From IMG/VR virus record IMGVR_UViG_2718218168_000001, positions 32,001 to 96,000 of that record: 64,000 bases of DNA. The stretch is one strand, 5' to 3'. The position numbers and the translations under genes are program-made. Under the pieces are notes generated by a model. The model was given only the letters and a program-made list of their open reading frames with translations, did not search any database and was not told the origin of the DNA. The stretch is from a virus (Duplodnaviria; Heunggongvirae; Uroviricota; Caudoviricetes). How positions within the stretch are numbered: the first letter of the stretch is position 1; each line of letters starts with the position of its first letter. This document shows positions 739-49,592 of this stretch, one piece after another.

Positions 739-2223
739 TCATTCATTAAGCCATGCCAGAGCTTCATCAACCTGCGCTTCGTCTTCGACGCTAAGCACTT
801 CATCCTGGGGAACATAATCCGCCAGCATAGCGAAACAATATGTATCCCAATGGTCTGGTGAGTGCAGGTTGAGTTTTTTCTTCATATCCTCCTTACTCAT
901 CACCTTCCATTGACCTGCGGAGTTAATCCCTACAGGGATTTTCGACGCTTCCTCAATAGTTTCATTACCCTTATCCAGTCTCATACGACCAGATTTTACG
1001 GCCTCTGCGGCTTGAACATTGGCATAAGCACGTTTATCAAAGTACAGGCTCTTATCTTCACGGCTATGCATCTTTTTACCCCAGCGTATACGCTGTACGG
1101 TAATACCATAATACTCGTACATCAGATCCGCCGTTGCTTTACCCAGGCCATCGCCGTCTATCGCTATGGTGATATTGGGGAATCGCTCAGGATTACATTC
1201 TGCGAAAATTTTGGCGGCAAGCTGCGTTTCTGTAACGTCTGTGTATTCCAGCATTCGATAGTTGATTACACGGCGTTTATTTCGCTGGCCGGACACCATC
1301 ATGATATTGATAACGGACTTATCCCGTCCCGTACCACCAGCAACGTCCACACATGCAAGCCAGCCCCATCCTTTGGCAATCTTGACTTTCCGCCGCGTTG
1401 CACGTTCAACCTCATCACGTCCAAGAAGGAAGCCATCCTGTGATTTAGGGAATAGGCCGCGTACCTTAATCATGTACATAGGGTTATCACGCCCGCCGTA
1501 CTCCGCCAGCTTCATTTTGATAAATGCTGGCGTTACCAACGGTGATTCCTCACTGTTAAGCGTGATCGCCGTATAAACGCCATCAGGGTTACCAGGACGC
1601 TTGGCCAGTTTATGGTGTGTATCGTAGAAATAGCCGCTTGGGCGTGTAGGCTGTGACAGCAATAAGATGCGGTTATCCTGTCCGGTAAGAGCACCGGTGA
1701 TGATACCGAAAGCTCTATCACTGACACCGGAGGCTTCATCGATAATATACAGAAGATGATCTGCGTGTTCACCGGCGAGAGCTTCTTCACTTCCCAGACG
1801 AAAGCCCTTCGGTACTACAGTCCATACACCTTTACCAGTAATCTCATAGAAAGCGGTTTCTGTCAGAACAAAATAATCAGCAAGCCATGGGAAACGGCTG
1901 GTGGCAGTAGCCCAGTTTATCTTGATGTACTTGAATATACCGGTCATTACCTGCTGAATTTTGTTCGCAACGATAATGGCACGGGCACCTGGATACATGA
2001 TTATGAACAACATGATCATGATAGAAGTCATGTCTGATTTCCCGGTACCGTGACCAGACGAAACAGATGTCTTGCTACCCTGTTCCTGCACAGACTCAAT
2101 AATCAGATCCTGCTGCCAGGTAGGTGTTTTGCCGAACAAAACATCAGCGGCAGCAATCCAGTCATAACGATATAGCGCCACCAGCTCGCGCCAACGTGGA
2201 TCCGTTACGCAACTTCTGGCCAT
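739..2223 (-). CDS. pacB: Terminase large subunit (PacB-like)
   Basis: 494 aa; Walker-A-like [11 protein letters not shown]; C-terminal nuclease-like region; directly downstream of and overlapping pacA. Confidence 0.85.
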
Positions 2224-3416
2224 TAATCATCATCCCCGTATAGCTTGCGGGTAACTTCTTCGTCTTCCTCCTCGTCTTCGTCCAGGTCTTGTTCCAGCCA
2301 TGGGTCGTTTGATACACCTTCAGTATCAACATCTCCATAACCGCCTGTATCAACGATATCGGCGATTTCTTCCCTACGCTGCTCAATCCACAATGCGGCA
2401 TCGGCGCGGCGGTTGGCGGCCCGTTCTCGCGCAACTTTGTCCAGATCTTCAAGAGAAGGACCACCGACGGCAGTTTGCCTTTCCTCATCATCGGTATTGG
2501 TCTTAGGAGCACGCAGATCGGCTTTGATTTGCTCCAGCATCAGGGGCGGCACTTTCCCGCCATGCGCCTCGATAAATTCAGCTGCTTCCAGCACTGACCA
2601 GTTATTTTCACGCTTTCGTTCGTATGCCAGCTTAACAATGCCAGCTTGCCCCATAGACAAAGCGTGCTTTTCCGCCTCCCGGCTTTCTTTTCGATAGTTA
2701 TTCCGGATGCTGTAAATGGTGTTGATCAGACTGCTTATCTGCGCGGAACAGCTGTTTAGCATGCTCGCGATACGGTATTCAGGCGGAGTACCTTCATCAT
2801 CGGCTTTTTGCTGATCGCGCATTTCCTGCACCAGGCGAATACACGTATCCCTGGCGTTCTCCAGCATAAGGAGATGAGAAAGAGACTTTTCCAGAAGAGT
2901 GGTTTCCAGAACATCGGCCCCGGACCGACGCAACATAGCGCGCGCGGCCTTCCGCGCTTCAACGTTATCTATCAGGTAATCGCCAGCTTCGAATTCAAAG
3001 CGTTCACCATCATCATCCAGGGTGTCGCGTTCCAGGCGATCACGCAAGGTCCGGTGGGCACGGGTGATCACGTCATGATCATCAGAACGATCATTTATGC
3101 GCTTATTTTGGCGCTTCGCATTCTCGACTGCGACACTGACAATGGCATTAACCCTTTGTTTTTCTGCTATTTCAGCCGCAATGTGATCACCGGAATGTTG
3201 ATCATTAGAGTGATCAATGATCATGCTTTTTAGTGGCTTCCTGACTGGCTTATTTGGCTTGCGGCTGTCCGTAGTCCTGGTGTCTTCTTTGAAGGCACGG
3301 AGATAACGACGTGCGGTATTAGGGTTAAGATTAAACTCGGCGGCATACTGTGCGATGGTGTAACCACCATCTCGCGCCAGGCGAGCAAAATTCTTCTTGT
3401 GATCGTCCCAGGTCAC
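2223..3416 (-). CDS. pacA: Terminase small subunit / pac-recognition protein (PacA-like)
   Basis: 397 aa; N-terminal HTH-like region, acidic C-terminus; gene body carries the clustered TGATCA pac-type repeats. Confidence 0.8.
3064..3223. other. pac packaging site: two clusters of TGATCA-type hexamers (3 + 4 GATC sites) inside pacA
   Basis: GATC at 3065, 3077, 3089 and TGATCA at 3184, 3199, 3211, 3218; two clusters about 100 bp apart, the P1 pac layout of Dam-methylatable hexamers. Confidence 0.7.
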
Positions 3417-4043: not shown

Positions 4044-5086
4044 TATCTAACACTCGACGAATGACTTGTGATAACGCCCACTCCAAGCGCGTAATCAAAG
4101 AACAATCGTTGATGCATCGCCAACCTACCGTGCGTCTTCTCCCAATTATCGCGGTCACGCTCAATATCACGCTGGCATGACTGGCACAGAGGAATTGCGT
4201 AAATGTCATGCGCGCATAATCGACTATGACGAACGATATAAGGCGTAATGTGAGCGCCAGCTCCCGCAGCTCCACACCCACAGCATGGACGGGAAGCAAC
4301 AAAGTCCATGTACTCAGGTAATTTTAGCGATTGCAGTTTTGGTATTTTGAAATGCGCCATGCCAGGGTCGGAGTCAACATCCACAGGGCATACTTTTGCA
4401 CGCATCGGCGCGGCGCGTTCTTCCATCATCTGAACATATGCTGTAGCGCGATCGTCATACGGGCGAATATCCGCCTCTTTCAGAGGTCCGCTATCCTGCG
4501 GAGTAGCCTTCATCTTATTTATTGATATGCGGCAGACTTCTTCCGGCATCAGGTGCATCATGTTGCGCATGAAAGCCCACCAGCACAGCTCCTGAATACT
4601 TAAATCATGGCTATTTGAAAGGCCCATTTCCTGACGGGCGACATCCAGTATCCAGTTAACGCGATTATTGTGCAGCGTTTCTTTCAGCTCATTAAAACCA
4701 CGCATCCGATAATGGTTATCGTGATGCCAGCACAACAACACCGCGCTATTGTCTCGTTCAGCGTGGACAATATGATTGTCACACCAACTACGATCTGCGG
4801 CCTGGCATTGACCCTCTTTCCTACGCAACCACGCCACCAGCGCGTCAATTCCACCAATACGGCGAAACAGTTCATCGCTGTTAAAAAACGGCTGCAACGC
4901 CTCATTTGTTGCCATGGTTTGCTCGGTAACAACGAGGCCGTCTTCCATGTGCTCGATTAACTCACGCGGCACCGGCTCCATAATAAATTTACGGCCAGCC
5001 TCCACCAGCTTTCTGACCTCCTGATCCACTTTGAACGTGGCGAGGCCAAGCTCTTTCTGTACAAAGGGAGTAATTACGGCTTTCAC
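4043..5086 (-). CDS. Cysteine-rich protein of unknown function (PdcB position; zinc-binding or HNH-like C-terminus)
   Basis: 347 aa; C-terminal [12 protein letters not shown]...C..C...CQSCQ cluster; follows phd-doc-pdcA-like genes. Confidence 0.45.
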
Positions 5087-5297: not shown

Positions 5298-5678
5298 CTA
5301 CTCCGCAGAACCATACAATCTACGTAACGTGGCGGCGACAGAAGATACAGATATCTCGCCAGTCGCAGCCCCTACGGTAAGGTCTGCCAGTTCAGGTGAA
5401 TCAAATACCTGCACCCCGTTACGGCGTAGAAATAACAGCGCACTGTTTAGCGCGGTACGCTTATTGGCATCATTGAATATATGCCCTCTCGCCGTAGCCA
5501 CCAGGTAGGTGGCGGAGACTTCGAAAAGGTCGGTGATCTCTTCGTAGGCAACTCTGGCCTGAACTCTCCCGATAATGGCCTCTGCCCTACCCGGATCTGA
5601 CATTCCCGGCAGGCCGCCGTAGCGGTTTATATTCGCATCATGAAGCGCAATAAGTTCTTCCGGTGATATATGCCTCAT
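5298..5678 (-). CDS. doc: Doc toxin (Fic/Doc family, death on curing)
   Basis: 126 aa; [17 protein letters not shown]...[11 protein letters not shown]; matches my recollection of P1 Doc almost residue for residue. Confidence 0.92.
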
Positions 5679-5899
5679 TATCGGTTAACCAGTTCCTTGT
5701 TGGTGGAGTCCAGGGTGTCAAACAGGGATGCAAATTCAGCATCCAGCGCCGCTTTTTTGTAGGTTTCAAAAGTAGCCTTGCTGACAATTACTGCTGGCTC
5801 ACGGCCTCTGCGGGTGATTTCAACCTCTTCCCCTGCTTCAACATTATTGAGCACTTCGCTAAGGTTGCCGCGCGCGGTACGGAAGTTAATGGATTGCAT
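5678..5899 (-). CDS. phd: Phd antitoxin
   Basis: 73 aa from [16 protein letters not shown]...; matches P1 Phd; stop overlaps the doc start. Confidence 0.9.
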
Positions 5900-5904
5900 A
5901 AACA

Positions 5905-5932
5905 CCTCGTGTACTCGTTATGTGTACACAAT
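5905..5932 (-). promoter_or_regulatory. phd-doc promoter/operator region with GTGTAC palindromes
   Basis: Perfect palindrome TGTGTACACA at 5921-5930 and a second GTGTAC at 5908-5913, just upstream of phd. Confidence 0.4.
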
Positions 5933-6043
5933 TATAAACTTCACAAGCATAAAGCACCAGCACTTTGCAGCTTAAATCACCGGACAATCGTCAAACTCCC
6001 CACTTCGGGCATCATTGATGAAATGATGTGGTCACACCAAACT

Positions 6044-6508
6044 TTAATCTTCAAGGTCTGCTTCTGATACCACTGTATAACCCAGAAATATTTTAATCTC
6101 ATCCCACAATCCCATGATCTTGCCTTCATACTCTGATGGTTCTCTTACAATTACTGAATCTGGGGGAGAGTGAGCCTCTAATTCAGTTATGATCTCATGG
6201 CAAAGATTATGTTTGTAATATTGTTTTAGTTTCTCTCGAATAGGTTTTGGCGCACTTTCAATAGTTTCTTTTGCGGCATTTAGTGAAAGAATTATATTAC
6301 TTGCGTCATTAACATCCCAGTCTGATCCAGCTTTTCCTGTTGCTATTTTATTTGCCCTATCAGCAAAGTTTATCAATGCTTCACTATAAAATTTTTCCTT
6401 ATCGAATAATCCAAGATTTTTACTTGTGCGCAAACTAATAAAAGCAGCTATTGCTGACCCAAATGCCGCAATAGCTGATGCCCAATCGGGATTGATATGA
6501 AGAAACAT
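6044..6508 (-). CDS. Hypothetical protein with N-terminal hydrophobic helix (low-GC accessory gene)
   Basis: 154 aa; WASAIAAFGSAIAAFISL segment; AT-rich codon usage unlike neighbours. Confidence 0.5.
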   Translation of the reverse strand: MFLHINPDWASAIAAFGSAIAAFISLRTSKNLGLFDKEKFYSEALINFADRANKIATGKAGSDWDVNDASNIILSLNAAKETIESAPKPIREKLKQYYKHNLCHEIITELEAHSPPDSVIVREPSEYEGKIMGLWDEIKIFLGYTVVSEADLED

Positions 6509-6592
6509 GCTATCTCTACCTAATGCCAGATCTTTAACCTAGAAATATTGTATCAGTAGTTATGGCTTTGCCACCAGTAATGCGATTTTTTC

Positions 6593-7252
6593 CTAGTTGT
6601 CATTGCCCCCTACCAGCGGCAATAAAGCCCTGGCCATCTTATGAACCAATAGTGCATCAATAATGCCAAGCGTATGCCCCGGGTTAATGTTTAATGCCGC
6701 CTCAAGGTGACACCTTTCCAGGCCACTTTTCTCGGCTTGTTTATGATGGTCTGGCTTAATAACGTCGCCCAAAACACGGCTAATTCTTTCTCGTAATTGC
6801 TGGGTGCCAGCACACTTGATCGCTGTATCGTGGAGACGGTTAACCAGTTCGCGATAAACATGCGGCTTAATGCGGATACGTTCACCGGTGACGCCCTTTC
6901 CTGGCCCTGGCACCGAACTATCCGGAATATCCGGATAGTTGCCAGCCTCGTAAGCTACCCGCAGCCAGTGCATGAATGTTTCAGTAGACACACAACCACA
7001 GTCCACATCGATTTTTCCGCGTTGCTGTTCCAGCCACTGCTCAAAGTTCAATCTACACGTATTACTTTCATGTTGCTCTTTTTGTCTTAAGGCCAGCACC
7101 TGTTGGGCCAGTTCCAGAACGATACCGGGTGACGCTAACCTCTCAAATTCCAATAAATAGTTTGCGTCAGGATGACAAGTAGCCTCGCCTGCAAAAAATA
7201 CCAATTGCTGTAAGTATGCTGTCGTTAGAGTAGTCATTTCTTTTTGCGCCAT
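6593..7252 (-). CDS. Hypothetical protein
   Basis: 219-aa ORF, normal GC, no motif recognised. Confidence 0.5.
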   Translation of the reverse strand: MAQKEMTTLTTAYLQQLVFFAGEATCHPDANYLLEFERLASPGIVLELAQQVLALRQKEQHESNTCRLNFEQWLEQQRGKIDVDCGCVSTETFMHWLRVAYEAGNYPDIPDSSVPGPGKGVTGERIRIKPHVYRELVNRLHDTAIKCAGTQQLRERISRVLGDVIKPDHHKQAEKSGLERCHLEAALNINPGHTLGIIDALLVHKMARALLPLVGGNDN

Positions 7253-7608
7253 TTCTTTTCACATTCCTTAGTCCATTTTTCAATGTTCATTTTGGCAATA
7301 TCAGTCATTCCATCACCTAAGAAATACTTTTTCCGGTACGTCTTGCACTTAAACCACACTACAACAGCCACCAGCCAGAAAATAAAAGGCCATACAGCAA
7401 TACCAACTCCAGCCGCGATAAAGCCCAATAGCCATAAATGAAGCTCTCCAACTTCTGTTTGCGGCAATATTCTTAAAGAATTAAACAGCAGACTGAAGGA
7501 ATGGTCGTATGCATTGGCGGTATAAGACATGCAATCCATATAATTAAAGTCATAGCCTGCGGCTGCCGCCCATAATGGGCGGTCAAGAAAATGTTTTAGT
7601 GTCATCAT
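7234..7608 (-). CDS. Small membrane protein with two predicted TM helices and a lysine-rich tail (low-GC)
   Basis: 124 aa; LHLWLLGFIAAGVGIAVWPFIFWLVAVVVWF; C-terminal KKWRKKK. Confidence 0.5.
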   Translation of the reverse strand: MMTLKHFLDRPLWAAAAGYDFNYMDCMSYTANAYDHSFSLLFNSLRILPQTEVGELHLWLLGFIAAGVGIAVWPFIFWLVAVVVWFKCKTYRKKYFLGDGMTDIAKMNIEKWTKECEKKWRKKK

Positions 7609-7614
7609 ATAAAT

Positions 7615-7995
7615 TTAAGGTTCAGACCAGTTATCTTCAATAGCAATGCTTAATCTTTGTAGCCATTCTGCTAATTTCAGCATTGCTTCTCTTTCGCTTA
7701 AACCACGAGGAAAATCATCAAGCGAAATTGTTGGCTTGAAGCCCCCGTAATTATCCATTTCAACAGTCAGATTTTGCTCCAGCACGGTATTCCTTACGCG
7801 GCTATTGTGCCGAAGCAAATATACTGAACGTGATTTATTGGTTTTATGGTCAAACTGATATTCGGTAAGTATCATCTGGCTTTTGCCATGACTATTACCT
7901 CTCCACATACTTACCTCACTTAATAAAACAACTCCATACGTAGTTGATGATTTTTCCCCACGTAATATAAATATGCACTCCAGCAGAAAAACCAA
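7615..7995 (-). CDS. Hypothetical protein (low-GC), start uncertain
   Basis: 126-aa ORF; an internal Met (MWRGNSHGK...) is an alternative start; ends 7 nt before the membrane-protein gene. Confidence 0.4.
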   Translation of the reverse strand: MVFLLECIFILRGEKSSTTYGVVLLSEVSMWRGNSHGKSQMILTEYQFDHKTNKSRSVYLLRHNSRVRNTVLEQNLTVEMDNYGGFKPTISLDDFPRGLSEREAMLKLAEWLQRLSIAIEDNWSEP

Positions 7996-8086
7996 AACCT
8001 ACAATTACTGAAAAAATCAAAACATTTACTTTTGACATTATAAAATTTCTCTCGTTGCCGTAGGTGATAGCACCATAATTTCTAAT

Positions 8087-8338
8087 TTAGTGAGTTAGCA
8101 GTTCCATTTTTTCGATGATTTCCGCATGAGCATCATCGTTGTCAACACTTAACTCGTTTAATGCCTCTCGCACTACATCAACTTCTTCTGGTTGGAAGAA
8201 GTCATCTCGGTAGTCACCAAATAGAACCGAAACAAGCCTGCCACCAGCAACATCAAGATTGGCGCTAACAGGTGGCTCTTTACCATCCTCAAATTCGACT
8301 ACAAAAGTTAATTTCCCCATCGTTACCACCAGCGACAA
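8087..8338 (-). CDS. Hypothetical small acidic protein
   Basis: 83-aa ORF in the same operon direction. Confidence 0.4.
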   Translation of the reverse strand: MSLVVTMGKLTFVVEFEDGKEPPVSANLDVAGGRLVSVLFGDYRDDFFQPEEVDVVREALNELSVDNDDAHAEIIEKMELLTH

Positions 8339-8402
8339 ATTGAATACAAACCCAGTGCTGCCGCCATCACAATTCCTACCGTTGCGAATGCTTCAGGCCA
8401 GC

Positions 8403-9245
8403 TCATTGACCTGCCTCCTGGGGAGGTTCTGGTAGCAGCATCCAGAACAAGGCGTTCCCTAACCACGATAAAGTGCCGTCGCTCAACTCCACGTATTCCC
8501 CTTGCACCTGTCCTGCCATATACTCACCGTGCTTTGAATAAATTAAAATCCAATCATCTTGAGCGGGCATTCGCTCACTACAGCTTATCCAACCATCCGG
8601 AGTTACCGGATAGTTGCCATTCACAAGGTCAGCTCGAACATATAGCGTGTCATCATGGTGCTGATTGTGGCTGCACCACGTTAATTCGCTTAACTCGCCA
8701 TCTTCTGGCCATACTCCAGCTGTTTGCAGCCAGATATGGGCTGGCGCATCCTGGCAAGGTGTATTAACTGGAAACTTGTAAGTTTGGCTTACAGGTTGGC
8801 TACCCTGAAGCATGGCAGCGTGGCAGGCATACTCAACGCCCTTAACTGCATCTGCGCAGTAGTTATAGCGATTGCATTCCACTAATTTCCGTTTGAGTTT
8901 TTCAATTGCCTGCGCGACATCAGCCTGTATTACAGGAACTGGCGGAGTGGTATATAGTTTTCGGCATTTGTTTATCCAACCGGCATGGTCAGGCGTGTCT
9001 GTAAAGCGCAAATCGTTTTCGTAGCCCTCACGACTACGTTCTTTCCATTCCGTCCACGGAACACCGCTATTCCAAGTGGGGCGAGTGCAGGACTGATACA
9101 GAACAGGTTCAGCTTCCAGCGCTGCCAGAGCAATCCGTGCCAGTTCTTCCGCTTCTTCTGCTGGCAGTACAACGTTGCTACCAGGTCCGTATGTTTCGCG
9201 CCACTGCTTGATTGTCAGCAGTCGCTCTTTGGTAATAGTGGTCAT
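8403..9245 (-). CDS. DUF551-like prophage protein
   Basis: 280 aa; C-terminal DGWISCSERMP...WILIYSKHGEY resembles the DUF551 signature common in lambdoid early-region genes. Confidence 0.5.
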   Translation of the reverse strand: MTTITKERLLTIKQWRETYGPGSNVVLPAEEAEELARIALAALEAEPVLYQSCTRPTWNSGVPWTEWKERSREGYENDLRFTDTPDHAGWINKCRKLYTTPPVPVIQADVAQAIEKLKRKLVECNRYNYCADAVKGVEYACHAAMLQGSQPVSQTYKFPVNTPCQDAPAHIWLQTAGVWPEDGELSELTWCSHNQHHDDTLYVRADLVNGNYPVTPDGWISCSERMPAQDDWILIYSKHGEYMAGQVQGEYVELSDGTLSWLGNALFWMLLPEPPQEAGQ

Positions 9246-9451
9246 TTGTTAATCCTCAAAACTTTATGCCCGGGCGCAAAAGCACGCGTTTTGTCTTTGC
9301 TTATTCGCCAGCCATCCTTGCGCGCCTCTTTTGCACAACCAGACCATGACGTACCGATATACTCACCGAAGTCTGGCACTGGATATACACCTTCCGTACA
9401 CTGGCGGCAGTCACAATAGAGATGCATGGTGTAACTTGCGGCAATAGCCAT
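9242..9451 (-). CDS. Small cysteine-rich protein
   Basis: 69 aa from MAIAASYTMHLYCDCRQC...; strong SD (AAAGGAGAG) upstream; ATG 1 nt after the upstream stop. Confidence 0.5.
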   Translation of the reverse strand: MAIAASYTMHLYCDCRQCTEGVYPVPDFGEYIGTSWSGCAKEARKDGWRISKDKTRAFAPGHKVLRINK

Positions 9452-34371: not shown

Positions 34372-35256
34372 ATGCCGGAAGAAAGTAAAGGCTTCCTTAG
34401 CGTTGAAGAAGTTGCAGGAAATACAGGAGAAATCCACAGCCTGAAGCCCAATAACAACAGCACTATACAACCTATCGCTTTGTTGCGCTTAGGTGTGTTT
34501 GTGCCAACCTTAAAATCTACCAATGTGGCACTACGTCGCGGATCGTCAGTTACTACAAACACAACGAACGCAACCGAAGAACTATCAAGCCTTAAAATTG
34601 TTGAGCAGGAAGGCTATGAGGGAATTGAAATTCATGGCCCACGCCTGGATATGGATACTGATTTTAAGGTGTGGGTGGGCATAACCTCCGCGTTGTTTGA
34701 CTACGCACCTGATGATGACGGCATAATCACCCTGCCATTCTCCGAGTTTGCCGATCGATGCGGCTATCCACGTAAGCGCCTTTCAAAGGCGTTCCGTAAA
34801 AGTATTGATGACTCTCTGACACGCATTCAGCAGACAGTTGTCAAATTCCGCTTCCCGGCGGCAAAAGGTCATCTCAATAACATTAACGTCAACTTGTTGG
34901 CATATAGCAGCCTGAATACCGAGCTTGATGTTATCGAGATCCAGCCGCAGAAACAGCTATCTGAACTTTACTATGTTGACTATAAGCGAATCCTGAAGCT
35001 GAAGATGCTGGATAAGCTCGGGCGCAAAGAGACGGCCAAGGTACTGTATACATTCTTTGAGGCTCTACCCGCCAACCCGGCACCTGTCAGCATTGAGCGC
35101 CTTAGAGCAAGGCTTAATCTCAAATCATCCGTTAGCGTGCAAAATAGCGTTATCAGAAAAGCCATGAAAGATTTGGAAGCTATTGAATATCTTAAATTTT
35201 CAGAAATAAAAAACGGCAGGAAAATCGGCTTCCAGATCCATAAGCGCAATCCATAA
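34372..35256 (+). CDS. repA: Iteron-binding replication initiator RepA; start uncertain
   Basis: 294-aa ORF flanked by iteron arrays in P1-type origin/control layout. Confidence 0.75.
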   Translation: MPEESKGFLSVEEVAGNTGEIHSLKPNNNSTIQPIALLRLGVFVPTLKSTNVALRRGSSVTTNTTNATEELSSLKIVEQEGYEGIEIHGPRLDMDTDFKVWVGITSALFDYAPDDDGIITLPFSEFADRCGYPRKRLSKAFRKSIDDSLTRIQQTVVKFRFPAAKGHLNNINVNLLAYSSLNTELDVIEIQPQKQLSELYYVDYKRILKLKMLDKLGRKETAKVLYTFFEALPANPAPVSIERLRARLNLKSSVSVQNSVIRKAMKDLEAIEYLKFSEIKNGRKIGFQIHKRNP

Positions 35257-35258
35257 TA

Positions 35259-35514
35259 TTGACTATATGCGATAGCGAGAAGTTGACTATAGGCGACATT
35301 CGTTGACGCTGGTGGATTTTTGCTGGCGTCAATATTCTGCAAGTCGCTATTGAGATGGCTTTTAGGGTCATTTCATCGCGTATAGTCAACGTTTCTCCCG
35401 ACAATATCTTACATAGTCGATCTTTGGTGGAGTTAAATCGACTACAGTCAACTTTTGACTGTAGTCACATCGCGCATAGTCAACTATTCACATTAACTTT
35501 CGCGCATAGTCAAC
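35259..35514. repeat. Downstream iteron array (incA-like copy-control locus), mixed orientation
   Basis: Forward iterons at 35259, 35283, degenerate 35303; reverse iterons (cgcgtatagtcaac type) at 35376, 35438, 35470, 35500. Confidence 0.7.
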
Positions 35515-35548
35515 ATTTGCGCGGTTCTCATCAAGCAGTGGTATTGAT

Positions 35549-36358
35549 ATGCAAGAAGAGAAACAACACTACCTCTACGTTCTGGTGCCGGAGAATGGAG
35601 ATACTTTTAAAATCGGCATTTCATGTGGTCCATTGGCACGGTTTAAAGGGCTACAAGTGAGTCCCGATTTTGCGCTTTCACGGGTCTATCGTGGTACGCG
35701 TTTGGCAATAGTTAATCTTGAGCGGGCTTTACACGCAACCTTTTTCCCCTGGAATGCGCCGTGGGAGAAAAGCGCTGGTGGCGGGCATACTGAATGGTTT
35801 ACACGAGAGTGTCTTGATAAGGTTTTGGCTCATATCGAATATCTAAATGATATGTGGGGAGGGATTCTCGAGCGCATTAAGTCGAATGATTTACTTCAGC
35901 GTCCAGTAGATGCTGCCCGCTCTTTCGAAAAAGAGCTGGATGTTACTTCTATCGTGACTTTCAAAGATGACGCAGGAATGAGGGACGTGGCTTATGTCTC
36001 CATATCTGGCTATGAACCGGACGCGATCCGCGCTCAATGTGAATTGCTGAAAGCAATGTTTATGCTTCGGACTAAATATTCCTGGGAGACAAGGCGGGTG
36101 TGCTTCCCTATGGAAGAGTTAACCGCCACCATTGATTCCCAGCTTTACCACGATAATCCAGAGAAGTTTTTTAGCCTTTTAGCCGGTAATGGGCTTAACT
36201 GTGTGTCCGGGCTGGGGCGAAGTAGAATCCAACATGCCTCGCTCTTCGGTCCCTTCTTTTACGATCGACACGGGTACTTTGAGGCTGAACTTCCGGCGCT
36301 TACGCGTGCTATAGATACTATCGATTTCGAACGATTATTCGCTGCTCTTAGCAAATAA
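35549..36358 (+). CDS. T5orf172-domain (GIY-YIG-superfamily-like) protein inserted between iterons and parA
   Basis: 269 aa; N-terminal YLYVLVPENGDTFKIGIS...LHATFFPW...GGGHTEWF; own terminator downstream. Confidence 0.5.
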   Translation: MQEEKQHYLYVLVPENGDTFKIGISCGPLARFKGLQVSPDFALSRVYRGTRLAIVNLERALHATFFPWNAPWEKSAGGGHTEWFTRECLDKVLAHIEYLNDMWGGILERIKSNDLLQRPVDAARSFEKELDVTSIVTFKDDAGMRDVAYVSISGYEPDAIRAQCELLKAMFMLRTKYSWETRRVCFPMEELTATIDSQLYHDNPEKFFSLLAGNGLNCVSGLGRSRIQHASLFGPFFYDRHGYFEAELPALTRAIDTIDFERLFAALSK

Positions 36359-37739: not shown

Positions 37740-38741
37740 ATGTCAAAGAAAAACAGACCAACAATTGGGCGAACCCTTAATCCTTCAATATTAAGCGGAT
37801 TTGATAGTTCTTCAGCCTCTGGCGATCGAGTCGAGCAGGTATTCAAGTTATCAACTGGTCGCCAGGCCACATTTATTGAAGAGGTAATACCTCCGAACCA
37901 GGTAGAAAGCGATACCTTTGTTGATCAGCATAACAACGGGCGTGACCAGGCATCTCTTACGCCAAAATCATTAAAAAGTATCCGAAGCACTATTAAGCAT
38001 CAGCAATTTTACCCTGCAATAGGTGTTAGACGGGCTACAGGGAAAATTGAAATTTTGGATGGTTCCCGGCGTCGAGCTTCTGCCATCTTAGAGAACGTAG
38101 GGTTGCGGGTTTTAGTCACGGACCAGGAGATCAGCGTTCAGGAAGCGCAAAATTTAGCGAAAGACGTTCAGACAGCATTGCAGCACAGCATTCGAGAAAT
38201 AGGTCTGCGTTTGATGCGAATGAAAAATGATGGGATGAGTCAGAAGGATATTGCAGCCAAAGAAGGGCTGTCTCAGGCGAAGGTCACGCGTGCTCTCCAG
38301 GCAGCGAGTGCTCCGGAAGAATTAGTCGCCCTTTTCCCTGTGCAGTCGGAATTAACCTTTTCGGACTACAAAACGCTTTGTGCTGTTGGCGACGAAATGG
38401 GGAACAAGAATTTAGAGTTTGATCAGCTTATTCAAAACATATCCCCGGAAATAAACGACATCTTATCCATTGAAGAAATGGCCGAAGATGAAGTTAAAAA
38501 TAAAATCCTGCGCTTGATAACAAAGGAAGCCTCACTACTCACGGATAAAGGTTCTAAAGATAAGTCCGTAGTTACTGAATTATGGAAATTTGAGGACAAG
38601 GATCGCTTTGCAAGGAAGCGCGTGAAAGGCCGTGCATTTTCTTATGAGTTTAATCGACTTTCAAAAGAGCTACAGGAAGAACTCGACAGGATGATTGGGC
38701 ATATCCTTAGAAAGAGCCTCGATAAAAAGCCGAAGCCTTAA
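37740..38741 (+). CDS. parB: Partition protein ParB
   Basis: 333 aa; ParB/Spo0J-like region (ILDGSRRRASAI); followed by parS. Confidence 0.9.
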   Translation: MSKKNRPTIGRTLNPSILSGFDSSSASGDRVEQVFKLSTGRQATFIEEVIPPNQVESDTFVDQHNNGRDQASLTPKSLKSIRSTIKHQQFYPAIGVRRATGKIEILDGSRRRASAILENVGLRVLVTDQEISVQEAQNLAKDVQTALQHSIREIGLRLMRMKNDGMSQKDIAAKEGLSQAKVTRALQAASAPEELVALFPVQSELTFSDYKTLCAVGDEMGNKNLEFDQLIQNISPEINDILSIEEMAEDEVKNKILRLITKEASLLTDKGSKDKSVVTELWKFEDKDRFARKRVKGRAFSYEFNRLSKELQEELDRMIGHILRKSLDKKPKP

Positions 38742-38744
38742 ACT

Positions 38745-38830
38745 TTCGCCATTCAAATTTCACTATTAACCTACTGTTTTTAAAGTAAATCCATCTAAAA
38801 TTTCAAGGTGAAATCGCCACGATTTCACCT
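38745..38830. other. parS centromere (box A heptamers ATTTCAC and box B hexamers TCGCCA)
   Basis: TCGCCA (38745), ATTTCAC (38756), GTGAAAT-TCGCCA-cg-ATTTCAC (38807-38827) with an AT-rich spacer. Confidence 0.8.
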
Positions 38831-38894
38831 TGGATTTTACCTTCCGCCCCTACTCCCGAAAAAAATAAAAAAATTGCTTGTCACGAGAAAGTCA

Positions 38895-38915
38895 ACAAGT
38901 GACTTTCAATAAAAT
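38895..38915 (+). promoter_or_regulatory. Late-promoter-like element (ACAAGT-N9-TAAAAT)
   Basis: acaagt gactttcaa taaaat, upstream of the capsid-like gene. Confidence 0.5.
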
Positions 38916-38966
38916 CTCTTCCGAAAAGGGATTCACACAAGTGCCTTGTGTTTAAGGAAGAGTAAA

Positions 38967-40673
38967 TTGAGTAACTTACGCGAATACCAGAATCGTATTG
39001 CAGATATCGCAAAACGCTCTAAAGCTGTGCTTGGCTGGGCAAGCACTGCGCAGTTCGGTACTGATAACCAATTCATTAAAGATGATGCCGCGCGTGCCGC
39101 ATCTATCCTTGAAGCTGCACGTAAAGACCCGGTTTTTGCGGGTATCTCTGATAATGCCACCGCTCAAATCGCTACAGCGTGGGCAAGTGCACTGGCTGAC
39201 TACGCCGCAGCACATAAATCTATGCCGCGTCCGGAAATTCTGGCCTCCTGCCACCAGACGCTGGAAAACTGCCTGATTGAGTCCACCCGCAATAGCATGG
39301 ATGCCACTAATAAAGCGATGCTGGAATCCGTCGCAGCAGAGATGATGAGCGTTTCTGACGGTGTTATGCGTCTGCCTTTATTCCTCGCGATGATCCTGCC
39401 TGTTCAGTTGGGGGCAGCTACCGCTGATGCGTGTACCTTCATTCCGGTTACGCGTGACCAGTCCGACATCTATGAAGTCTTTAACGTGGCAGGTTCCTCT
39501 TTTGGTTCTTATGCTGCTGGTGATGTTCTGGACATGCAATCCGTCGGTGTGTACAGCCAGTTACGTCGCCGCTATGTGCTGGTGGCAAGCTCCGATGGCA
39601 CCAGCAAAACCGCAACCTTCAAGATGGAAGACTTCGAAGGCCAGAATGTACCAATCCGAAAAGGTCGCACTAACATCTACGTTAACCGTATTAAGTCTGT
39701 TGTTGATAACGGTTCCGGCAGCCTACTTCACTCGTTTACTAATGCTGCTGGTGAGCAAATCACTGTTACCTGCTCTCTGAACTACAACATTGGTCAGATT
39801 GCCCTGTCGTTCTCCAAAGCGCCGGATAAAGGCACTGAGATCGCAATTGAGACGGAAATCAATATTGAAGCCGCTCCTGAGCTGATCCCGCTGATCAACC
39901 ACGAAATGAAGAAATACACCCTGTTCCCAAGCCAGTTCGTTATCGCGGCTGAGCACACGGTACAGGCGGCGTATGAAGCACAGCGTGAATTTGGTCTGGA
40001 CCTGGGTTCCCTACAGTTCCGCACCCTGAAGGAATACCTGTCTCATGAACAGGATATGCTGCGTCTTCGCATCATGATCTGGCGTACTCTTGCGACCGAC
40101 ACCTTTGACATCGCTCTGCCGGTTAACCAGTCCTTTGATGTATGGGCAACCATCATTCGTGGCAAATTCCAGACTGTATATCGCGACATTATTGAGCGCG
40201 TTAAATCTTCTGGTGCGATGGGGATGTTTGCTGGTGCTGATGCAGCATCTTTCTTCAAACAGTTGCCGAAGGATTTCTTCCAGCCAGCCGAAGACTATAT
40301 CCAGACTCCGTATGTTCACTTCATCGGTACCCTGTTCGGTAACGTGAAAGTGTACGAAGTACCTGCTGGTATTTGTAAGAACTTAACGACAGAGAACATT
40401 CAGTTCAGCTCGATGGATGTGCTGTGCTACGTCCGTGATGAAAATCCGGGTAAAGCAGGCTTCGTGACTGGTGATGCTGTCCCGGCCATCCCGTTCCAGC
40501 ATCCGACCACTCCGGCGCTGGTCAACCGTACCACGCTGTGGGGTTCGGCTATCAACGATATGCACCCACGCAACGGCGCTGATTACTTCACTCGTGTAAC
40601 GCTGACAATGGCCAAAAAAGGCGGGCTTAACTTCATAAGCGGCGACACGATTGATGCCGGTGACTCTGAGTAA
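38967..40673 (+). CDS. Putative major head protein precursor (gene-23 position next to parB)
   Basis: About 568 aa from a TTG preceded by SD aaggaagag (ORF track starts at 38946); identity by position and size, followed by a stabilising hairpin. Confidence 0.5.
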   Translation: MSNLREYQNRIADIAKRSKAVLGWASTAQFGTDNQFIKDDAARAASILEAARKDPVFAGISDNATAQIATAWASALADYAAAHKSMPRPEILASCHQTLENCLIESTRNSMDATNKAMLESVAAEMMSVSDGVMRLPLFLAMILPVQLGAATADACTFIPVTRDQSDIYEVFNVAGSSFGSYAAGDVLDMQSVGVYSQLRRRYVLVASSDGTSKTATFKMEDFEGQNVPIRKGRTNIYVNRIKSVVDNGSGSLLHSFTNAAGEQITVTCSLNYNIGQIALSFSKAPDKGTEIAIETEINIEAAPELIPLINHEMKKYTLFPSQFVIAAEHTVQAAYEAQREFGLDLGSLQFRTLKEYLSHEQDMLRLRIMIWRTLATDTFDIALPVNQSFDVWATIIRGKFQTVYRDIIERVKSSGAMGMFAGADAASFFKQLPKDFFQPAEDYIQTPYVHFIGTLFGNVKVYEVPAGICKNLTTENIQFSSMDVLCYVRDENPGKAGFVTGDAVPAIPFQHPTTPALVNRTTLWGSAINDMHPRNGADYFTRVTLTMAKKGGLNFISGDTIDAGDSE

Positions 40674-43776: not shown

Positions 43777-44286
43777 ATGGGGCACAATAACACTAAGGGA
43801 AACCGTAAATTTATTAAGGGCCGCTATACTGCCAACGCGGCCAAAGGCGAACGACTGGTATCTTCTGAATTCCAGCTCACTTTTGCAGGCCATGAAGATA
43901 TCAGCGTACTGGTTCGCACGTCGCAAATTCCTGAAATGACCCGCGAGGATGTGGAGGACTATGGTCCGAATGGTGTGAAGTTCAACCAGCACGGTCCAAT
44001 CCGTAACTCCGGGGAAATCCAGGTCCAGTGCGTGGAGACTATCGAAGGCGATATTCTTCAGTTCATTAAAGATCGCATTGCGGCGAAGGACTATGTTGAT
44101 ATCACGATGGCTGCGACCCCTGAATCCAAATCTTCCGGGGTTAACGCTGTGACAAAAGCTGCTACAACAATTGAAATGTTGGACTGCAAAATCTACAGTG
44201 ATGCAATCGACTTTAGTACCGAAGATGTGACTGCCGCTGTGCGTCCGTCACTTCGTATCGTTTACAACTGGATTGAGTGGGATTAA
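43777..44286 (+). CDS. Hypothetical structural-module protein
   Basis: 169-aa ORF followed by an intrinsic terminator. Confidence 0.45.
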   Translation: MGHNNTKGNRKFIKGRYTANAAKGERLVSSEFQLTFAGHEDISVLVRTSQIPEMTREDVEDYGPNGVKFNQHGPIRNSGEIQVQCVETIEGDILQFIKDRIAAKDYVDITMAATPESKSSGVNAVTKAATTIEMLDCKIYSDAIDFSTEDVTAAVRPSLRIVYNWIEWD

Positions 44287-44305
44287 GAGTCACCCCTTGT
44301 ATTTT

Positions 44306-44330
44306 AAAGCTCCTACGGGAGCTTTTTTGT
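44306..44330 (+). terminator. Intrinsic terminator
   Basis: aagctcc-tacg-ggagctt hairpin plus TTTTTT. Confidence 0.75.
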
Positions 44331-44369
44331 GCTTAAATTATGCCGGTATAGCGAAATTTTGAGCATATT

Positions 44370-44666
44370 ATGGAAATTGATTTTTCATACTCTCCTGAAA
44401 CGATAGAACGAAGATTCGAAATAATTGGATGCAAAACTATTTCAGAGGAGCATTATTGGATTCTCTATGATGCCAATACATGGTTATGTGCCTTAGCAGA
44501 ATGTCGGCCATCGTTATGTGCAGGGGAGGGAGGACTTCGACATAAGGTGCTGGCTACACTTGAAGTGAACACGTTACGATATTGGTGTGTCGAAATACTT
44601 AGGGATAACAAAGAATTACATTTATTATTGCTGAATAAGTGTGCGCCTCTGCGCAGGAAAGCATAA
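44370..44666 (+). CDS. Hypothetical small protein (possible moron)
   Basis: 98-aa ORF after a terminator, in an AT-rich stretch. Confidence 0.35.
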   Translation: MEIDFSYSPETIERRFEIIGCKTISEEHYWILYDANTWLCALAECRPSLCAGEGGLRHKVLATLEVNTLRYWCVEILRDNKELHLLLLNKCAPLRRKA

Positions 44667-44832
44667 GAAAACCCAACCGCCATACTGGAATTATCAGAAG
44701 AATATGTGCGGAAAGTTATAGCTAGCTATTGAAAAGCTAAAGTAGATCGGTTAGATTTACCTTACTCATCTACCATGCGTAGAAAGAGCGATCGAACCCG
44801 ATACATAGCAATATGTGTCGGGTTCAGCTTTT

Positions 44833-45312
44833 TTATGTCCCAAGTGCTCTTTTTCTGCTTTGTTTGAGTGTTCTGATTTTACTGTCATAGGTTACAACAT
44901 AGGCTGTTTTGAGAAGCCAATAGTCTCTACGTGCGGATAGCACAACAACGTAGTTTTCACACTCGTTCCAGATTACCCACTCTTCAGTTGGTCCTCGTCT
45001 TTCAGACCAACATGATATATCGCAATGGTCATAATTCCTTATCATATGCGCGATCCAGCGGATCCGCTTACACCGTTCAAGATCAGGTATTCGTTCTTCT
45101 TCTATTTTTCCCTCTGATACTAAATGCCAAAATCCGAACTCTTTCCCATCATATTCCGGTGAATAACGTAATCGAACAGGGAGACCCTTAAACGTTATAT
45201 TAGAGATTAAAATATCTTCTCTAACAACATCATATACATCGTCTATATACTCTTGCCAACTTCCATTGAAGTACAATAAATCTGGCATTTGAAGCATCAG
45301 CGAGCCTCCCAC
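44833..45312 (-). CDS. Hypothetical protein, second gene of a low-GC cassette
   Basis: 159-aa ORF (start may be an internal Met); overlaps upstream gene by 16 nt; AT-rich. Confidence 0.45.
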   Translation of the reverse strand: MGGSLMLQMPDLLYFNGSWQEYIDDVYDVVREDILISNITFKGLPVRLRYSPEYDGKEFGFWHLVSEGKIEEERIPDLERCKRIRWIAHMIRNYDHCDISCWSERRGPTEEWVIWNECENYVVVLSARRDYWLLKTAYVVTYDSKIRTLKQSRKRALGT

Positions 45313-46001
45313 ACGAAAATATTAAATTTACTTTCTGTTGGAAGAGTGCTTTTTAGTAACTCCCTGTTTGTATGTGATTTTATCCTGTTTATGACTTGGA
45401 TTTTTCCCGCGTTGCTATTCATTCCTCGATGAACGTAGCCTAACGCACCAATGAAAAGATCCGTTAGCTGCAATTGTTGCACTTCATGAGATCGTATATG
45501 TTGAATTCTGTTTATCGACTCATGATTGTAATCATAGCGATCATTGTGAAGAACTCCTCTTAATTTCTCAATTTTTTCAATACCTAAAGTATCTTTTATA
45601 TCTAGGTAGATATTGTATGTGTTGTTACTTTCTATTATGTTTTTTAAGACATAAAAAAACATCTTATAATAGAAAGTATTGTGATCTTGATGGAATCGAG
45701 CATGGTCCAGTTGCTCTTTATCAGGAACAACAACACCTCTAAAGCGCAATGCTGGGTTGCTGAAGAAGTAATCTACGACCTCTAAGTAAAATTCAACTTT
45801 GGACGCAGATACTTTAGTCCACTTGATTTCGAAATCAGGTTTTAAATTGTGTTTTAATTTTAATCCCTTGATGTCTCTAGCAATTTTTTTTGTGATAGTG
45901 CCAGGACACCAAAGCGCACCCAATACCATGACTTTATTATGATCATTTAGTAGGTGACAGGATTCATCGCAGAATACATTAAATGTTCTTCGGTTCAACA
46001 T
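45297..46001 (-). CDS. DUF3800-like protein, first gene of a low-GC cassette
   Basis: 234 aa; N-terminal FNVFCDESCH resembles the DUF3800 (y)DESG start; AT-rich. Confidence 0.45.
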   Translation of the reverse strand: MLNRRTFNVFCDESCHLLNDHNKVMVLGALWCPGTITKKIARDIKGLKLKHNLKPDFEIKWTKVSASKVEFYLEVVDYFFSNPALRFRGVVVPDKEQLDHARFHQDHNTFYYKMFFYVLKNIIESNNTYNIYLDIKDTLGIEKIEKLRGVLHNDRYDYNHESINRIQHIRSHEVQQLQLTDLFIGALGYVHRGMNSNAGKIQVINRIKSHTNRELLKSTLPTESKFNIFVWEAR

Positions 46002-46152
46002 GTTAACTCCACTTATTGTTAGGTAGAATTGTCCGTTAGTTGTTTATTAATTGCAATAATGGGACGTTCTGATTTGCTAACTACGTCATCTTACCAGGAC
46101 GCCTATGAGTTTTCCTCATGGCAAACTAGAGGTGTTGAAAGTATGCATGGTT

Positions 46153-46169
46153 ATAATTAGAGCAATCTA
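46153..46169 (-). promoter_or_regulatory. C1-operator-like site between repL and the low-GC cassette
   Basis: ataattagagcaatcta; reverse complement AGATTGCTCTAATTAT. Confidence 0.45.
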
Positions 46170-49319: not shown

Positions 49320-49410
49320 GACGTGACGGGGTTAGCAGACTGGCGATTGTGAAACCAGCAGGCCGAAGCCTCCCCATCACGCCCCACCATAATTTGGGCG
49401 TAACGCGGTT
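49320..49410 (-). ncRNA. Putative c4-like antisense RNA region (copy 2)
   Basis: GTTAGCAG (49331-49338) is complementary to CTGCTAAAC direct repeats at 49302-49310 and 49481-49489; ends not determined. Confidence 0.35.
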
Positions 49411-49577: not shown

Positions 49578-49592
49578 ATTTATTAGAGCAGA
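49578..49592 (-). promoter_or_regulatory. C1-repressor-type operator upstream of c4-icd-ant
   Basis: aatttattagagcag; reverse complement CTGCTCTAATAAATT. Confidence 0.6.

Follow-up and report, generated by a model that had tools for sequence, protein, structure and literature searches.

P1-like phage-plasmids carry eight variable low-GC regions, one of which extends from pmgT to humD (PMC9603915). In the P1 reference annotation (NC_005856; Lobocka et al., 2004), this segment reads pmgT-pmgU-pmgV-upfM/N/O-hot-lxr-humD. Similar in kind are the small ORFs of the lambdoid nin and ea regions and the Hendrix-type morons, which are likewise small modules of deviant GC content placed between conserved genes, the classical moron having a promoter and a terminator of its own. 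A further group to be considered are the single-gene membrane-anchored exclusion proteins, such as the lactococcal Sie2009-type proteins, P22 SieA and T4 Imm.

Gene content of the pmgT-humD segment

The DNA analyzed here, a stretch of 64,000 nucleotides referred to as the window, belongs to a P1-like phage-plasmid of Escherichia coli, as seen from the synteny pacA-lpa-pdcB-doc-phd, 100% identity to E. coli P1-like plasmids and 11 C1-operator-like sites versus 0.28 by chance. Its AT-rich stretch is part of the pmgT-humD 'variable region 8', located between the pap/Op88-PpmgT promoter and phd-doc on a shared strand, and otherwise collinear P1-like elements differ in the gene content of this segment. 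The segment resembles that of P1 in position, orientation, variability and low GC, but hot, lxr and most of humD are gone, with ORF154 present instead, and ORF124, ORF97, ORF40, ORF83, DUF551 and Ea22-like genes are found in place of pmgV and upfM/N/O. In a sample of 80 P1-like loci, the slot before phd holds hot-humD-phd, complete to phd, in 43, a further 13 hot-humD loci stop short of phd, and about 14 have the arrangement hot-lxr-humD; some P1-like elements carry toprim and DNA-binding cargo in the slot otherwise holding hot and humD. The features of the segment, all on the minus strand, are as follows.

5298-5678, minus: doc, after phd
5678..5905, minus: phd, conserved downstream anchor of the variable segment, with doc next
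5973..6041, minus: humD 3' remnant, the last 22 codons and stop, ...INDARSGEFDDCPVI*, directly after the ORF154 stop codon
6042..6611, minus: replacement module of 570 bp, about 37% GC; P1-like relatives align up to 6041 and again from 6612 on
6044..6508, minus: ORF154, PHROG 1779 member with an N-terminal apolar anchor helix, an all-alpha domain (predicted cytoplasmic) and an acidic tail, SEADLED
6547..6574, minus: candidate sigma-70 promoter of ORF154, GTGGCA, 16 nt, TGaTACAAT (extended -10), from a consensus scan
6593..7252, minus: ORF219, PmgT/PmgU-like, GC 48%, PHROG 21459 at E 1.5e-76; separates ORF154 from ORF124
7234..7608, minus: ORF124, PHROG 2638 member with 35 conserved N-terminal residues, one hydrophobic run of 31 residues and a basic tail at the C-terminus
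7615..7908, minus: ORF97, PHROG 1258 member, soluble, homologous to N15 gp44 and phiKO2 gp43
7916..8038, minus: ORF40, PHROG 5525 member of 40 aa with a single hydrophobic helix, 30% GC
11451..11467, minus: C1 operator (Op88/OpmgT equivalent, 2 mismatches to the consensus) with the PpmgT promoters

The variable region has been described before, and the stretch is typical mosaic cargo, not a new system. We consider it probable that it represents a promoter-distal mosaic of single-gene modules within the hypervariable pmgT-humD segment and not a three-gene system. The modules would be drawn from a pool of small 'nin/ea-type' genes common to temperate enterobacterial phages, and their low GC may mark them as foreign and often exchanged.

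The initial annotation had viewed the stretch as an AT-rich cluster of three consecutive small genes in a phage accessory slot. The low GC and the accessory slot, which is the variable region 8 already noted as low in GC (PMC9603915), stand, but the three-gene unit, the gene order and the size of one gene do not. Minus-strand ORFs are present at 6044-6508 (154 aa), 7234-7608 (124 aa) and 7615-7995 (126 aa from a TTG), and their AT-richness holds on computation, with a GC of 36.3% for ORF154, 40.5% for ORF124 and 39.8% for ORF97 against 47.3% for the window. ORF154 has a GC3 of 23.9%; the standard deviation of GC over 465-nt windows is 4.0%, and just 2.3% of these have a GC of 37.5% or less. 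The genes are not consecutive, as ORF154 and ORF124 are separated by a 219-aa ORF (6593-7252, GC 48.3%) that overlaps the end of ORF124, and on their coding strand they are located upstream of phd (5678-5905), not downstream of phd-doc. The 126-aa ORF had been over-extended: a GAGGT ribosome-binding site before the ATG at 7908, a RefSeq gene of 294 nt and the extent of PHROG 1258 all indicate a gene of 97 aa from that ATG. The TTG extension of this frame overlaps ORF40, which had been missed and which is annotated in 813R1 and an E. albertii plasmid.

ORF124 has the C-terminal KKWRKKK reported for it, but the two transmembrane helices ascribed to it are not established. There is one hydrophobic run of 31 residues (57-87, KD19 maximum 2.38), which AlphaFold2, given a 9-sequence alignment, drew as one long helix in a model too poor to use (pLDDT 58). 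A class II holin, which would have two transmembrane domains, a charged C-terminus and a gene beside that of an endolysin in a lysis cassette, was considered for ORF124 and rejected given this single 31-residue run, the N-terminal domain of 55 residues and the location in a probable early accessory operon whose surroundings contain no lysis genes.

No known domain had been recognized in these proteins, and comparison with Pfam, PADLOC, sequences of the PDB and structure libraries likewise revealed none. Single-protein and family-wide Pfam scans gave no match at the family threshold and none that was consistent across members, PADLOC-DB 2.0 gave no match for any of seven ORFs at E values up to 1, and profile searches of PDB sequences with the ORF154 and ORF97 families returned nothing significant. 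The PHROGs matched were families of unknown function alone, and a literature search found no study of these ORF families. Searches of 5850-8450 for a LexA box, Rfam RNAs, meaningful repeats and flanking direct repeats found none.

The absence of recognized domains, together with a slot that is dispensable in many P1-like elements, would be compatible with the ORFs being non-functional hitchhikers whose low GC marks decaying foreign DNA. We regard this as the least probable explanation, close to negligible. Conservation, the lack of which the initial annotation had named as refuting, is evident from full-length PHROG matches for ORF124 (PHROG 2638, E 3.2e-63), ORF97 (PHROG 1258, E 1.1e-49, the profile covering residues 1-97 of 97) and ORF40 (PHROG 5525, E 8.4e-21), and from pN/pS values of 0.12 for ORF124 versus RCS47, 0.18-0.31 for ORF97 and about 0.4 for ORF40. 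This range of 0.12-0.4 argues against decay, as do reading frames that are intact in every relative examined, families that keep 27-68% identity across genera and the confidently predicted fold of ORF154.

Promoter context and independent assortment of the small genes

Positions 11270-11491 share about 98% identity with the Op88/PpmgT region annotated in P1, and PpmgT/Op88 is by this homology the likely start of an early operon through ORF40, ORF97, ORF124 and ORF219. The genes are tightly packed, with terminator-like sites no more frequent than by chance, and internal promoters within the predicted operon are possible. Given their place downstream of a conserved C1-repressed promoter, these four genes are probably early lytic genes and not expressed in the lysogen. 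Judging from the P1 promoter homology and the gene packing, they would be transcribed from C1-repressed PpmgT and would act early after induction or infection in dispensable accessory functions, two small inner-membrane proteins among them. Compared with morons, ORF40, ORF97 and ORF124 appear to be plain operon members.

Predictions place hydrophobic helices in ORF154, ORF124 and ORF40, and the exclusion or abortive-infection role proposed for small membrane proteins of this kind is conceivable mainly for ORF154. For ORF40, ORF97 and ORF124, the C1-repressed location argues against lysogen expression, which superinfection exclusion needs.

The initial annotation had further suggested that membrane proteins are paired here with soluble partners. 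On this reading, ORF154, ORF124 and ORF97 would make up one operon-encoded system of membrane effectors with a soluble sensor, and it is true that the three share a strand, lie close together and are all AT-rich, and that ORF40, ORF97 and ORF124 are tightly packed and occur together as a block in 308 complete E. coli genomes (about 5%). This is very improbable, given that an unrelated 219-aa gene interrupts the set, that about 97% of the elements with ORF124 and ORF97 are without ORF154 (the ORF124-97-40 block is found in roughly 308 E. coli genomes, and just 9 of these also have ORF154), that ORF124 has been swapped out in a plasmid keeping the others, and that relatives in other phages are never adjacent. 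The plasmid in question is an E. albertii sister plasmid that retains ORF154, ORF97 and ORF40 and in which other small ORFs occupy the position of ORF124.

Over its full length, ORF97 shares 55-67% identity with N15 gp44 and phiKO2 gp43, uncharacterized proteins encoded in the early operon of linear plasmid-prophages, and the motif DFP...LKLA.W..R...IE is conserved; the neighbors differ, N15 gp45 and phiKO2 gp44 being unrelated to ORF124. Further relatives of ORF97 occur in mEp235 and HK225, within the nin region, and in a P22-like phage, within the ea region. In N15, phiKO2, mEp235, HK225 and P22-like phages the ORF97 relative occurs without ORF124, elsewhere ORF124 relatives occur without ORF97, and in Proteus phages relatives of both are present about 6 kb apart. 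A 79-80-aa gene upstream of distant ORF124 relatives (L005, L007) was examined as an ORF97 homologue and is not homologous. Conserved co-occurrence and adjacency of the three genes were not found across relatives, and the genes differ from one another in their phylogenetic distribution among temperate enterobacterial phages and in their sets of neighbors. They assort independently, and the pairing of membrane and soluble proteins is therefore not a conserved one. Within P1-like elements, a functional link of ORF40, ORF97 and ORF124 is possible given their co-travel in about 5% of the genomes.

Replacement of hot and humD by the ORF154 module

The junctions of the AT-rich module harboring ORF154 were mapped to 6041/6042 and 6611/6612. 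At this site other P1-like elements have about 1.37 kb of DNA that contains hot and humD and, in some cases, lxr or further genes. On one side, window positions 6041..5880 align at 94-96% to P1, RCS47 and 813R1, beginning inside humD, and the translated frame of the remnant is the HumD C-terminus. On the other side, ORF219 shares 95% identity with the P1 pmgT/pmgU region over its C-terminal half, and its very C-terminus differs from RCS47, the last few codons having been rewritten by the replacement module. This lineage has thus exchanged hot and the first 82% of humD for the 570-bp AT-rich ORF154 module. No theta remnant was found beside ORF154 in the window.

Identical copies of the 570-bp module are found in just a handful of plasmids, and ORF154 DNA is present in 9 of 5426 complete E. 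coli genomes, in every case on plasmids. ORF154 resembles a moron in its deviant composition and in lying between genes that neighbor each other in relatives. The classical moron differs in having its own promoter and terminator, as ORF154 has a weak candidate promoter and no terminator-like site after the gene. Promoter-like sites in the region are no more frequent than in shuffled sequence, and the ORF154 candidate occurs at chance frequency. ORF154 may nevertheless use this weak promoter of its own and would act alone, not with its present neighbors. The locus is a clean case of cargo replacement, with hot and humD lost and a humD scar left, and illustrates the remodeling of SOS and replication accessory genes in P1-like plasmid-prophages.

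The ORF154 family and its place beside phage theta genes

ORF154 matches the PHROG 1779 profile at E 1.5e-62, with residues 1-154 on positions 1-169 of 169, and the family alignments show conserved motifs. This is a small family confined to Enterobacterales prophages; a word-indexed protein search with ORF154 returned its own cluster only and an exhaustive search was needed, phmmer giving 21 representatives. The relatives are located in nin regions or near xis/int of phages, the homologue in PhiR26_1 being found between ren and ybcN/ninB, about 1.7 kb from PD-lambda-1. P1 Lxr was also considered as a relative of ORF154 and has no similarity to it.

The N-terminal hydrophobic helix given for ORF154 in the initial annotation is borderline in this protein alone (KD19 1.49) and becomes clear in the family, where 37 of 39 members have it at a value of at least 1.6. 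Across the 39 members the mean number of K+R rises from 0.18 ahead of the helix to 3.54 behind it (positive-inside). The AlphaFold2 model of ORF154 (pLDDT 83.4) shows a helical domain, for which no known structural relative was found in structure libraries. ORF154 is accordingly best pictured as a putative bitopic inner-membrane protein with its N-terminus out and a helical domain of roughly 125 residues, from about residue 28 to residue 154, in the cytoplasm.

The normal site of PHROG 1779 is in the variable slots flanking phage theta genes. In 23 of 35 and in 28 of 30 loci, a theta (hot-like) gene is no more than about 125 nt away from the family member; overall, theta adjoins it, on one side or the other, in 51 of 65 loci (about 78%). 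Most phages have the member in an early operon at a distance of 0-20 nt from theta, and some have an X1-theta-X2 arrangement. The converse is rare, a PHROG 1779 member accompanying theta at 6 of 80 loci in lambdoid phages and at 0 of 80 in P1-like elements. The ORFs flanking theta fall into 24 and 31 different clusters, and small membrane proteins are among the other occupants of these flanks. In Cronobacter prophages the family member is intact and the adjoining theta has decayed to 26 codons.

This strong one-way association could have a functional basis and not be due to a recombination slot used in common. One explanation would be that the ORF154 family works with the Pol III theta subunit, either phage Hot-like or host HolE, for example by tethering or modulating epsilon-theta proofreading while the phage replicates or in SOS mutagenesis. 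Besides the adjacency in 51 of 65 loci and the X1-theta-X2 cases, the intergenic gaps of 0-20 nt suggest co-translation with theta, and in P1-like elements the slot is otherwise taken by the replication and SOS-related genes hot, lxr and humD; ORF154 would then have replaced hot and humD as a member of their functional neighborhood, and host HolE could stand in wherever a phage theta is missing. We nevertheless consider such a partnership improbable. Theta loci rarely have a family member beside them (6/80 and 0/80), dozens of unrelated ORFs occupy the theta flanks, in line with a recombination hotspot, the family is retained next to truncated theta remnants and in the window without any theta, and a membrane anchor is unexpected in a replisome partner.

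Alternatively, ORF154, and possibly ORF124 or ORF40, could be a prophage-expressed membrane protein that protects the lysogen, each acting alone, through superinfection exclusion, with DNA entry blocked at the inner membrane, or through abortive infection, with the membrane disrupted after an infection is sensed. The architecture of ORF154 fits, with its N-terminal anchor and soluble domain, as do its AT-richness, its place in a cargo slot and its own candidate promoter. The Cronobacter member that is intact beside a decayed theta suggests that the gene is selected in its own right, and the proximity of the PhiR26_1 homologue to PD-lambda-1 and the small membrane proteins among other theta-flank occupants also count in favor of this explanation. 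ORF154 shares with the Sie2009-type proteins, SieA and Imm a broad design, namely about 150-170 aa, an N-terminal anchor and stand-alone occurrence as temperate-phage cargo. It has, however, no sequence or profile similarity to them and no match to PADLOC, Pfam or any known exclusion protein, and its soluble domain is predicted to face the cytoplasm, unlike the site of most Imm/Cor-type entry blockers. The usual context of the family, 0-20 nt from theta in an early lytic operon and not in a lysogeny module, implies expression during lytic growth and not in the lysogen, and ORF40 and ORF124 lie within the C1-repressed operon. Taken together, an exclusion or abortive-infection role appears unlikely, though it is the rival to the single-gene mosaic to which we give the most weight.

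For the family as a whole, we regard with almost equal reserve the possibility that PHROG 1779 comprises an uncharacterized class of inner-membrane-anchored effectors of a new helical fold, tied to the theta/epsilon module or else acting in single-gene prophage defense. It draws on the near-obligate place beside theta, the X1-theta-X2 arrangement included, which would speak for function rather than a shared slot. PHROG 1779 is in any case a small orphan family, with a confident fold without a relative, that is found beside theta in about four of five occurrences, and if the theta linkage is functional, it would provide a first handle on the reason temperate phages carry theta homologues. A HeLo or HeLo-like pore-forming domain was considered for ORF154 and dismissed, there being no profile or fold similarity. 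A Hafnia homologue of ORF154 bears, in one UniRef record, the label 'Fungal N-terminal domain-containing protein'.

Identity of the element and composition of the segment

Gene order, sequence identity to plasmids and to P1, and operator content all point clearly to a P1-like phage-plasmid (Punavirus) as the source of the window. Several 93-99 kb E. coli plasmids are 100% identical to it over 2.5 kb around ORF154-ORF40, P1, P7, RCS47, SJ46 and D6 show 94-97% identity to parts of these surroundings, and 11 C1-operator-like sites were found in the window against a chance expectation of 0.28. The features of the segment and its flank are as follows.

2223-3416, minus strand: pacA, from an ORF reading of the window; lpa and pdcB lie between pacA and doc
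5298-5678, minus strand: doc
5678-5905, minus strand: phd
5973-6041, minus strand: humD 3' remnant of 69 nt (last 22 codons, ending INDARSGEFDDCPVI and stop), directly after the ORF154 stop and before the phd promoter
6044-6508, minus strand: ORF154 (PHROG 1779)
6574-6547, minus strand: candidate sigma-70-like site (GTGGCA, 16 nt, TGaTACAAT) in the 84-nt spacer before ORF154; the region has no more sites of this kind than expected by chance
6593-7252, minus strand: ORF219, PmgT-like
7234-7608, minus strand: ORF124 (PHROG 2638)
7615-7908, minus strand: ORF97 (PHROG 1258)
7916-8038, minus strand: ORF40 (PHROG 5525)

The P1 counterpart of this segment begins at the C1-controlled promoter Op88/PpmgT, directly downstream of pap, and reads pmgT-pmgU-pmgV-upfM/N/O-hot-lxr-humD, followed by phd-doc. 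In a comparison of P1-like phage-plasmids, pmgT-humD was among eight highly variable regions, such regions being low in GC (PMC9603915), and extensive recombination is known among P1-like elements (PMC10879196).

The initial annotation had placed three consecutive AT-rich genes in an accessory slot, and this slot is indeed the described P1 pmgT-humD variable region. The three ORFs are present and their AT-richness was borne out, with a GC content of 36.3% for ORF154 (GC3 23.9%), 40.5% for ORF124 and 39.8% for ORF97 vs 47.3% for the window; a GC as low as that of ORF154 is reached by just 2.3% of 465-nt windows. The genes are not consecutive, however, as ORF219 (219 aa, normal GC of 48.3%) separates ORF154 from ORF124, and on the coding strand they lie upstream of phd-doc, not downstream. 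The supposed 126-aa frame proved to be an over-extension from a TTG that overlaps the separate, conserved hydrophobic ORF40 (40 aa, 30% GC); the real gene has 97 aa, starting at ATG 7908 after a GAGGT ribosome-binding site, as annotated in RefSeq and in line with a PHROG profile of 97 positions. Other islands with GC <=40% in the window (35101-35566, 38326-39091, 44176-46391, 49326-50666, 54551-55016 and 62576-63991) probably represent further variable regions already known from P1-like elements.

We consider it probable that the stretch is a mosaic of accessory modules, each an independent single gene, within this known variable segment. ORF40, ORF97, ORF124 and ORF219 would be dispensable early lytic genes, and ORF154 would be a membrane-anchored cargo gene that stands alone and was recently acquired in place of hot and humD. 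The segment resembles the mosaic cargo of lambdoid nin/ea regions in its behaviour. Public plasmids already contain the sequence, with its genes labelled as hypothetical proteins; what is new is the mapped exchange of hot and humD, the demonstration that the "cluster" does not form a unit, and, for PHROG 1779, a distribution linked to theta and a fold without a match.

Replacement of hot and humD

From phd as far as 6041 the window is homologous to P1, RCS47 and 813R1, this lower block starting within humD, and the homology begins again at 6612. Between these junctions the relatives hold ~1.37 kb with hot and humD, and the window holds 570 bp at ~37% GC, which encode ORF154 and alter the final codons of ORF219. 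The humD remnant marks where hot and humD were deleted and replaced, and ORF154 therefore came in by an exchange that removed hot together with 82% of humD. In a sample of 80 P1-like hot loci, 43 read hot-humD-phd and 13 more show hot-humD ending before phd, with lxr also found at ~14; in other plasmids the slot carries toprim or DNA-binding genes. The ORF154 variant occurs in 9 of 5426 complete E. coli genomes, always plasmid-borne and at least 99% identical, and the ORF124-ORF97-ORF40 block in 308.

Since the junction (6593-6611, minus strand) falls inside the PmgT-like gene, the C-terminus of ORF219 (...LPLVGGNDN and stop) differs from that of RCS47 (...LPLVAEKHEVDHANES and stop), and evidently tolerates replacement.

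The ORF154 family and its linkage to theta

ORF154 aligns along its entire length with PHROG 1779 (E 1.5e-62). Just 21 relatives emerged when 1.84 billion cluster representatives were searched exhaustively with phmmer, and a profile search added 28 clusters; all members with an organism name are hypothetical proteins of Enterobacterales (Cronobacter, Serratia, Citrobacter, Klebsiella, Enterobacter, Pantoea, Hafnia and Raoultella). Members have 150-175 aa, an N-terminal apolar helix rich in Ala/Gly/Ser, the conserved motifs RAN...G..G.DW.F..AANI, K.YF..QL, PPD and W....FF, and in one third of cases a terminal acidic tail, D.DL.D. In 37 of 39 members this helix has sufficient hydrophobicity to serve as a membrane anchor; that of ORF154 itself is shortened (KD19 1.49). 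Basic residues are scarce before the helix and frequent after it (mean 0.18 vs 3.54), which predicts an N-out, C-in topology with a cytoplasmic domain. AlphaFold2, run on a 39-sequence alignment, gave a confident all-alpha model (pLDDT 83.4, core >90) in which a single long helix, anchor and stalk, leads into a helical bundle. Nothing consistent was obtained for ORF154 from Pfam, PADLOC or PDB sequence profiles, and P1 Lxr is unrelated. The Hafnia alvei homologue P0023 is named "Fungal N-terminal domain-containing protein" in UniRef, a name suggestive of a weak profile hit to HeLo-like domains; Pfam searches with 39 members and fold searches revealed no such similarity.

Members of the family reside in lambdoid prophages, in the nin region or the distal leftward early operon near xis/int, and their sole constant partner is a phage theta (hot/holE-like) gene or a theta remnant. 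Theta lies <=126 nt upstream of the family member in 23 of 35 loci of a first set and within ~120 nt in 28 of 30 loci of a second, from IMG/VR (51/65 overall). The 159-aa subfamily is found 5-20 nt downstream of theta and the 166-170-aa subfamily ~85 nt upstream, and some phages carry paralogues on both sides (X1-theta-X2). Members flanking theta were located as follows.

L023, 4150-5483
L133/L156, one IMG/VR contig
L152-L162
L133-L148

The converse is rare, a family member being present at 6 of 80 lambdoid theta loci and at none of 80 P1-like hot loci (6/160 together). The flanks of theta are occupied by 24 downstream and 31 upstream clusters of unrelated ORFs, several coding for small membrane or secreted proteins. 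Cronobacter has intact PHROG 1779 members beside 26-codon theta remnants, and the window has an intact ORF154 without any theta. A functional partnership of the family with theta/epsilon, for which this synteny is the sole argument, is improbable. Most simply, the flanks of theta would serve as slots for cargo, and PHROG 1779 would spread through recombination that uses the conserved theta gene as its anchor; this would also explain how ORF154 came to occupy the position of hot in a P1-like element.

Protection of the lysogen by an exclusion or abortive-infection protein, chiefly ORF154, would fit its architecture and cargo status; homology to known systems is absent and the family usually sits in early operons beside theta, and we regard this explanation as unlikely. 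On features testable by sequence or structure, no membership in known defence, exclusion, holin or HeLo-like families was found.

One theta-downstream slot (L174, ~2260-2850) encodes a protein of 194 aa that starts with a hydrophobic helix of the glycine-zipper type (MELWVGSMIGGAIGAVIGHG...); it is of the same architecture class as ORF154 and without detectable sequence similarity to it. A Citrobacter farmeri prophage (L021) has two theta (hot-like) genes 4 kb apart, at 4752-4991 and 9132-9386, with a TonB-dependent receptor gene between them and a PHROG 1779 member following only one.

ORF124, ORF97 and ORF40 and their probable expression

ORF124, ORF97 and ORF40 each match a PHROG family of unknown function over their full length, and are under purifying selection among P1-like variants (pN/pS 0.12, 0.18-0.31 and ~0.4, respectively). 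This conservation contradicts the notion of non-functional DNA, to which we assign hardly any probability. ORF97 has relatives of 35-68% identity in N15 (gp44), phiKO2 (gp43), the nin regions of mEp235 and HK225, and the ea region of a P22-like Salmonella phage, in none of which an ORF124 relative adjoins. The small ORF124 family (16 clusters) is represented in Yersinia, Klebsiella, Proteus and Morganella phages, and also in an unrelated temperate phage between exonuclease and dam, where the small gene upstream is not homologous to ORF97. Proteus phages with relatives of both genes have ~6 kb between them. The E. albertii P1-like plasmid NZ_CP034163.1 (L016) keeps ORF154, ORF97 and ORF40, with ORF124 replaced by two unrelated small ORFs:

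L016, 2830-3219: 58 aa with two hydrophobic helices; ~73 aa, Cys-containing, with a signal peptide

The ORF124 slot seems to favour small envelope proteins. These co-occurrence data contradict the three genes as one unit, and the membrane-plus-soluble exclusion or abortive-infection system of the initial annotation is highly improbable. Two transmembrane helices are not demonstrable in ORF124, which has a single 31-residue hydrophobic run and a structure model too poor for use; profile searches found no domain or solved-structure relative for ORF97. ORF40, with a single hydrophobic helix, ends 8 nt ahead of ORF97; most RefSeq plasmids leave it without annotation.

At 11270-11491 the window conserves the P1 operator Op88 and the PpmgT promoters with ~98% identity. 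From there to ORF219 the genes are one-stranded and tightly packed with several overlaps, and terminator-like sites show no excess over chance. Given this arrangement, ORF40, ORF97, ORF124 and ORF219 are most likely early genes under C1 repression, expressed once the prophage is induced or a cell is infected and not in the lysogen. The ORF154-ORF40 region (5850-8450) contains neither a LexA box nor an Rfam RNA, and no repeat of significance. Directly downstream of Op88/PpmgT lies a hydrophobic mini-ORF of 28 codons (MNTAFKIIMAAIYFWLFSITFGGIVAHG; ~11285-11370, minus strand), preceded by a palindrome with a 10-bp stem (11396-11418), both identical in P1.
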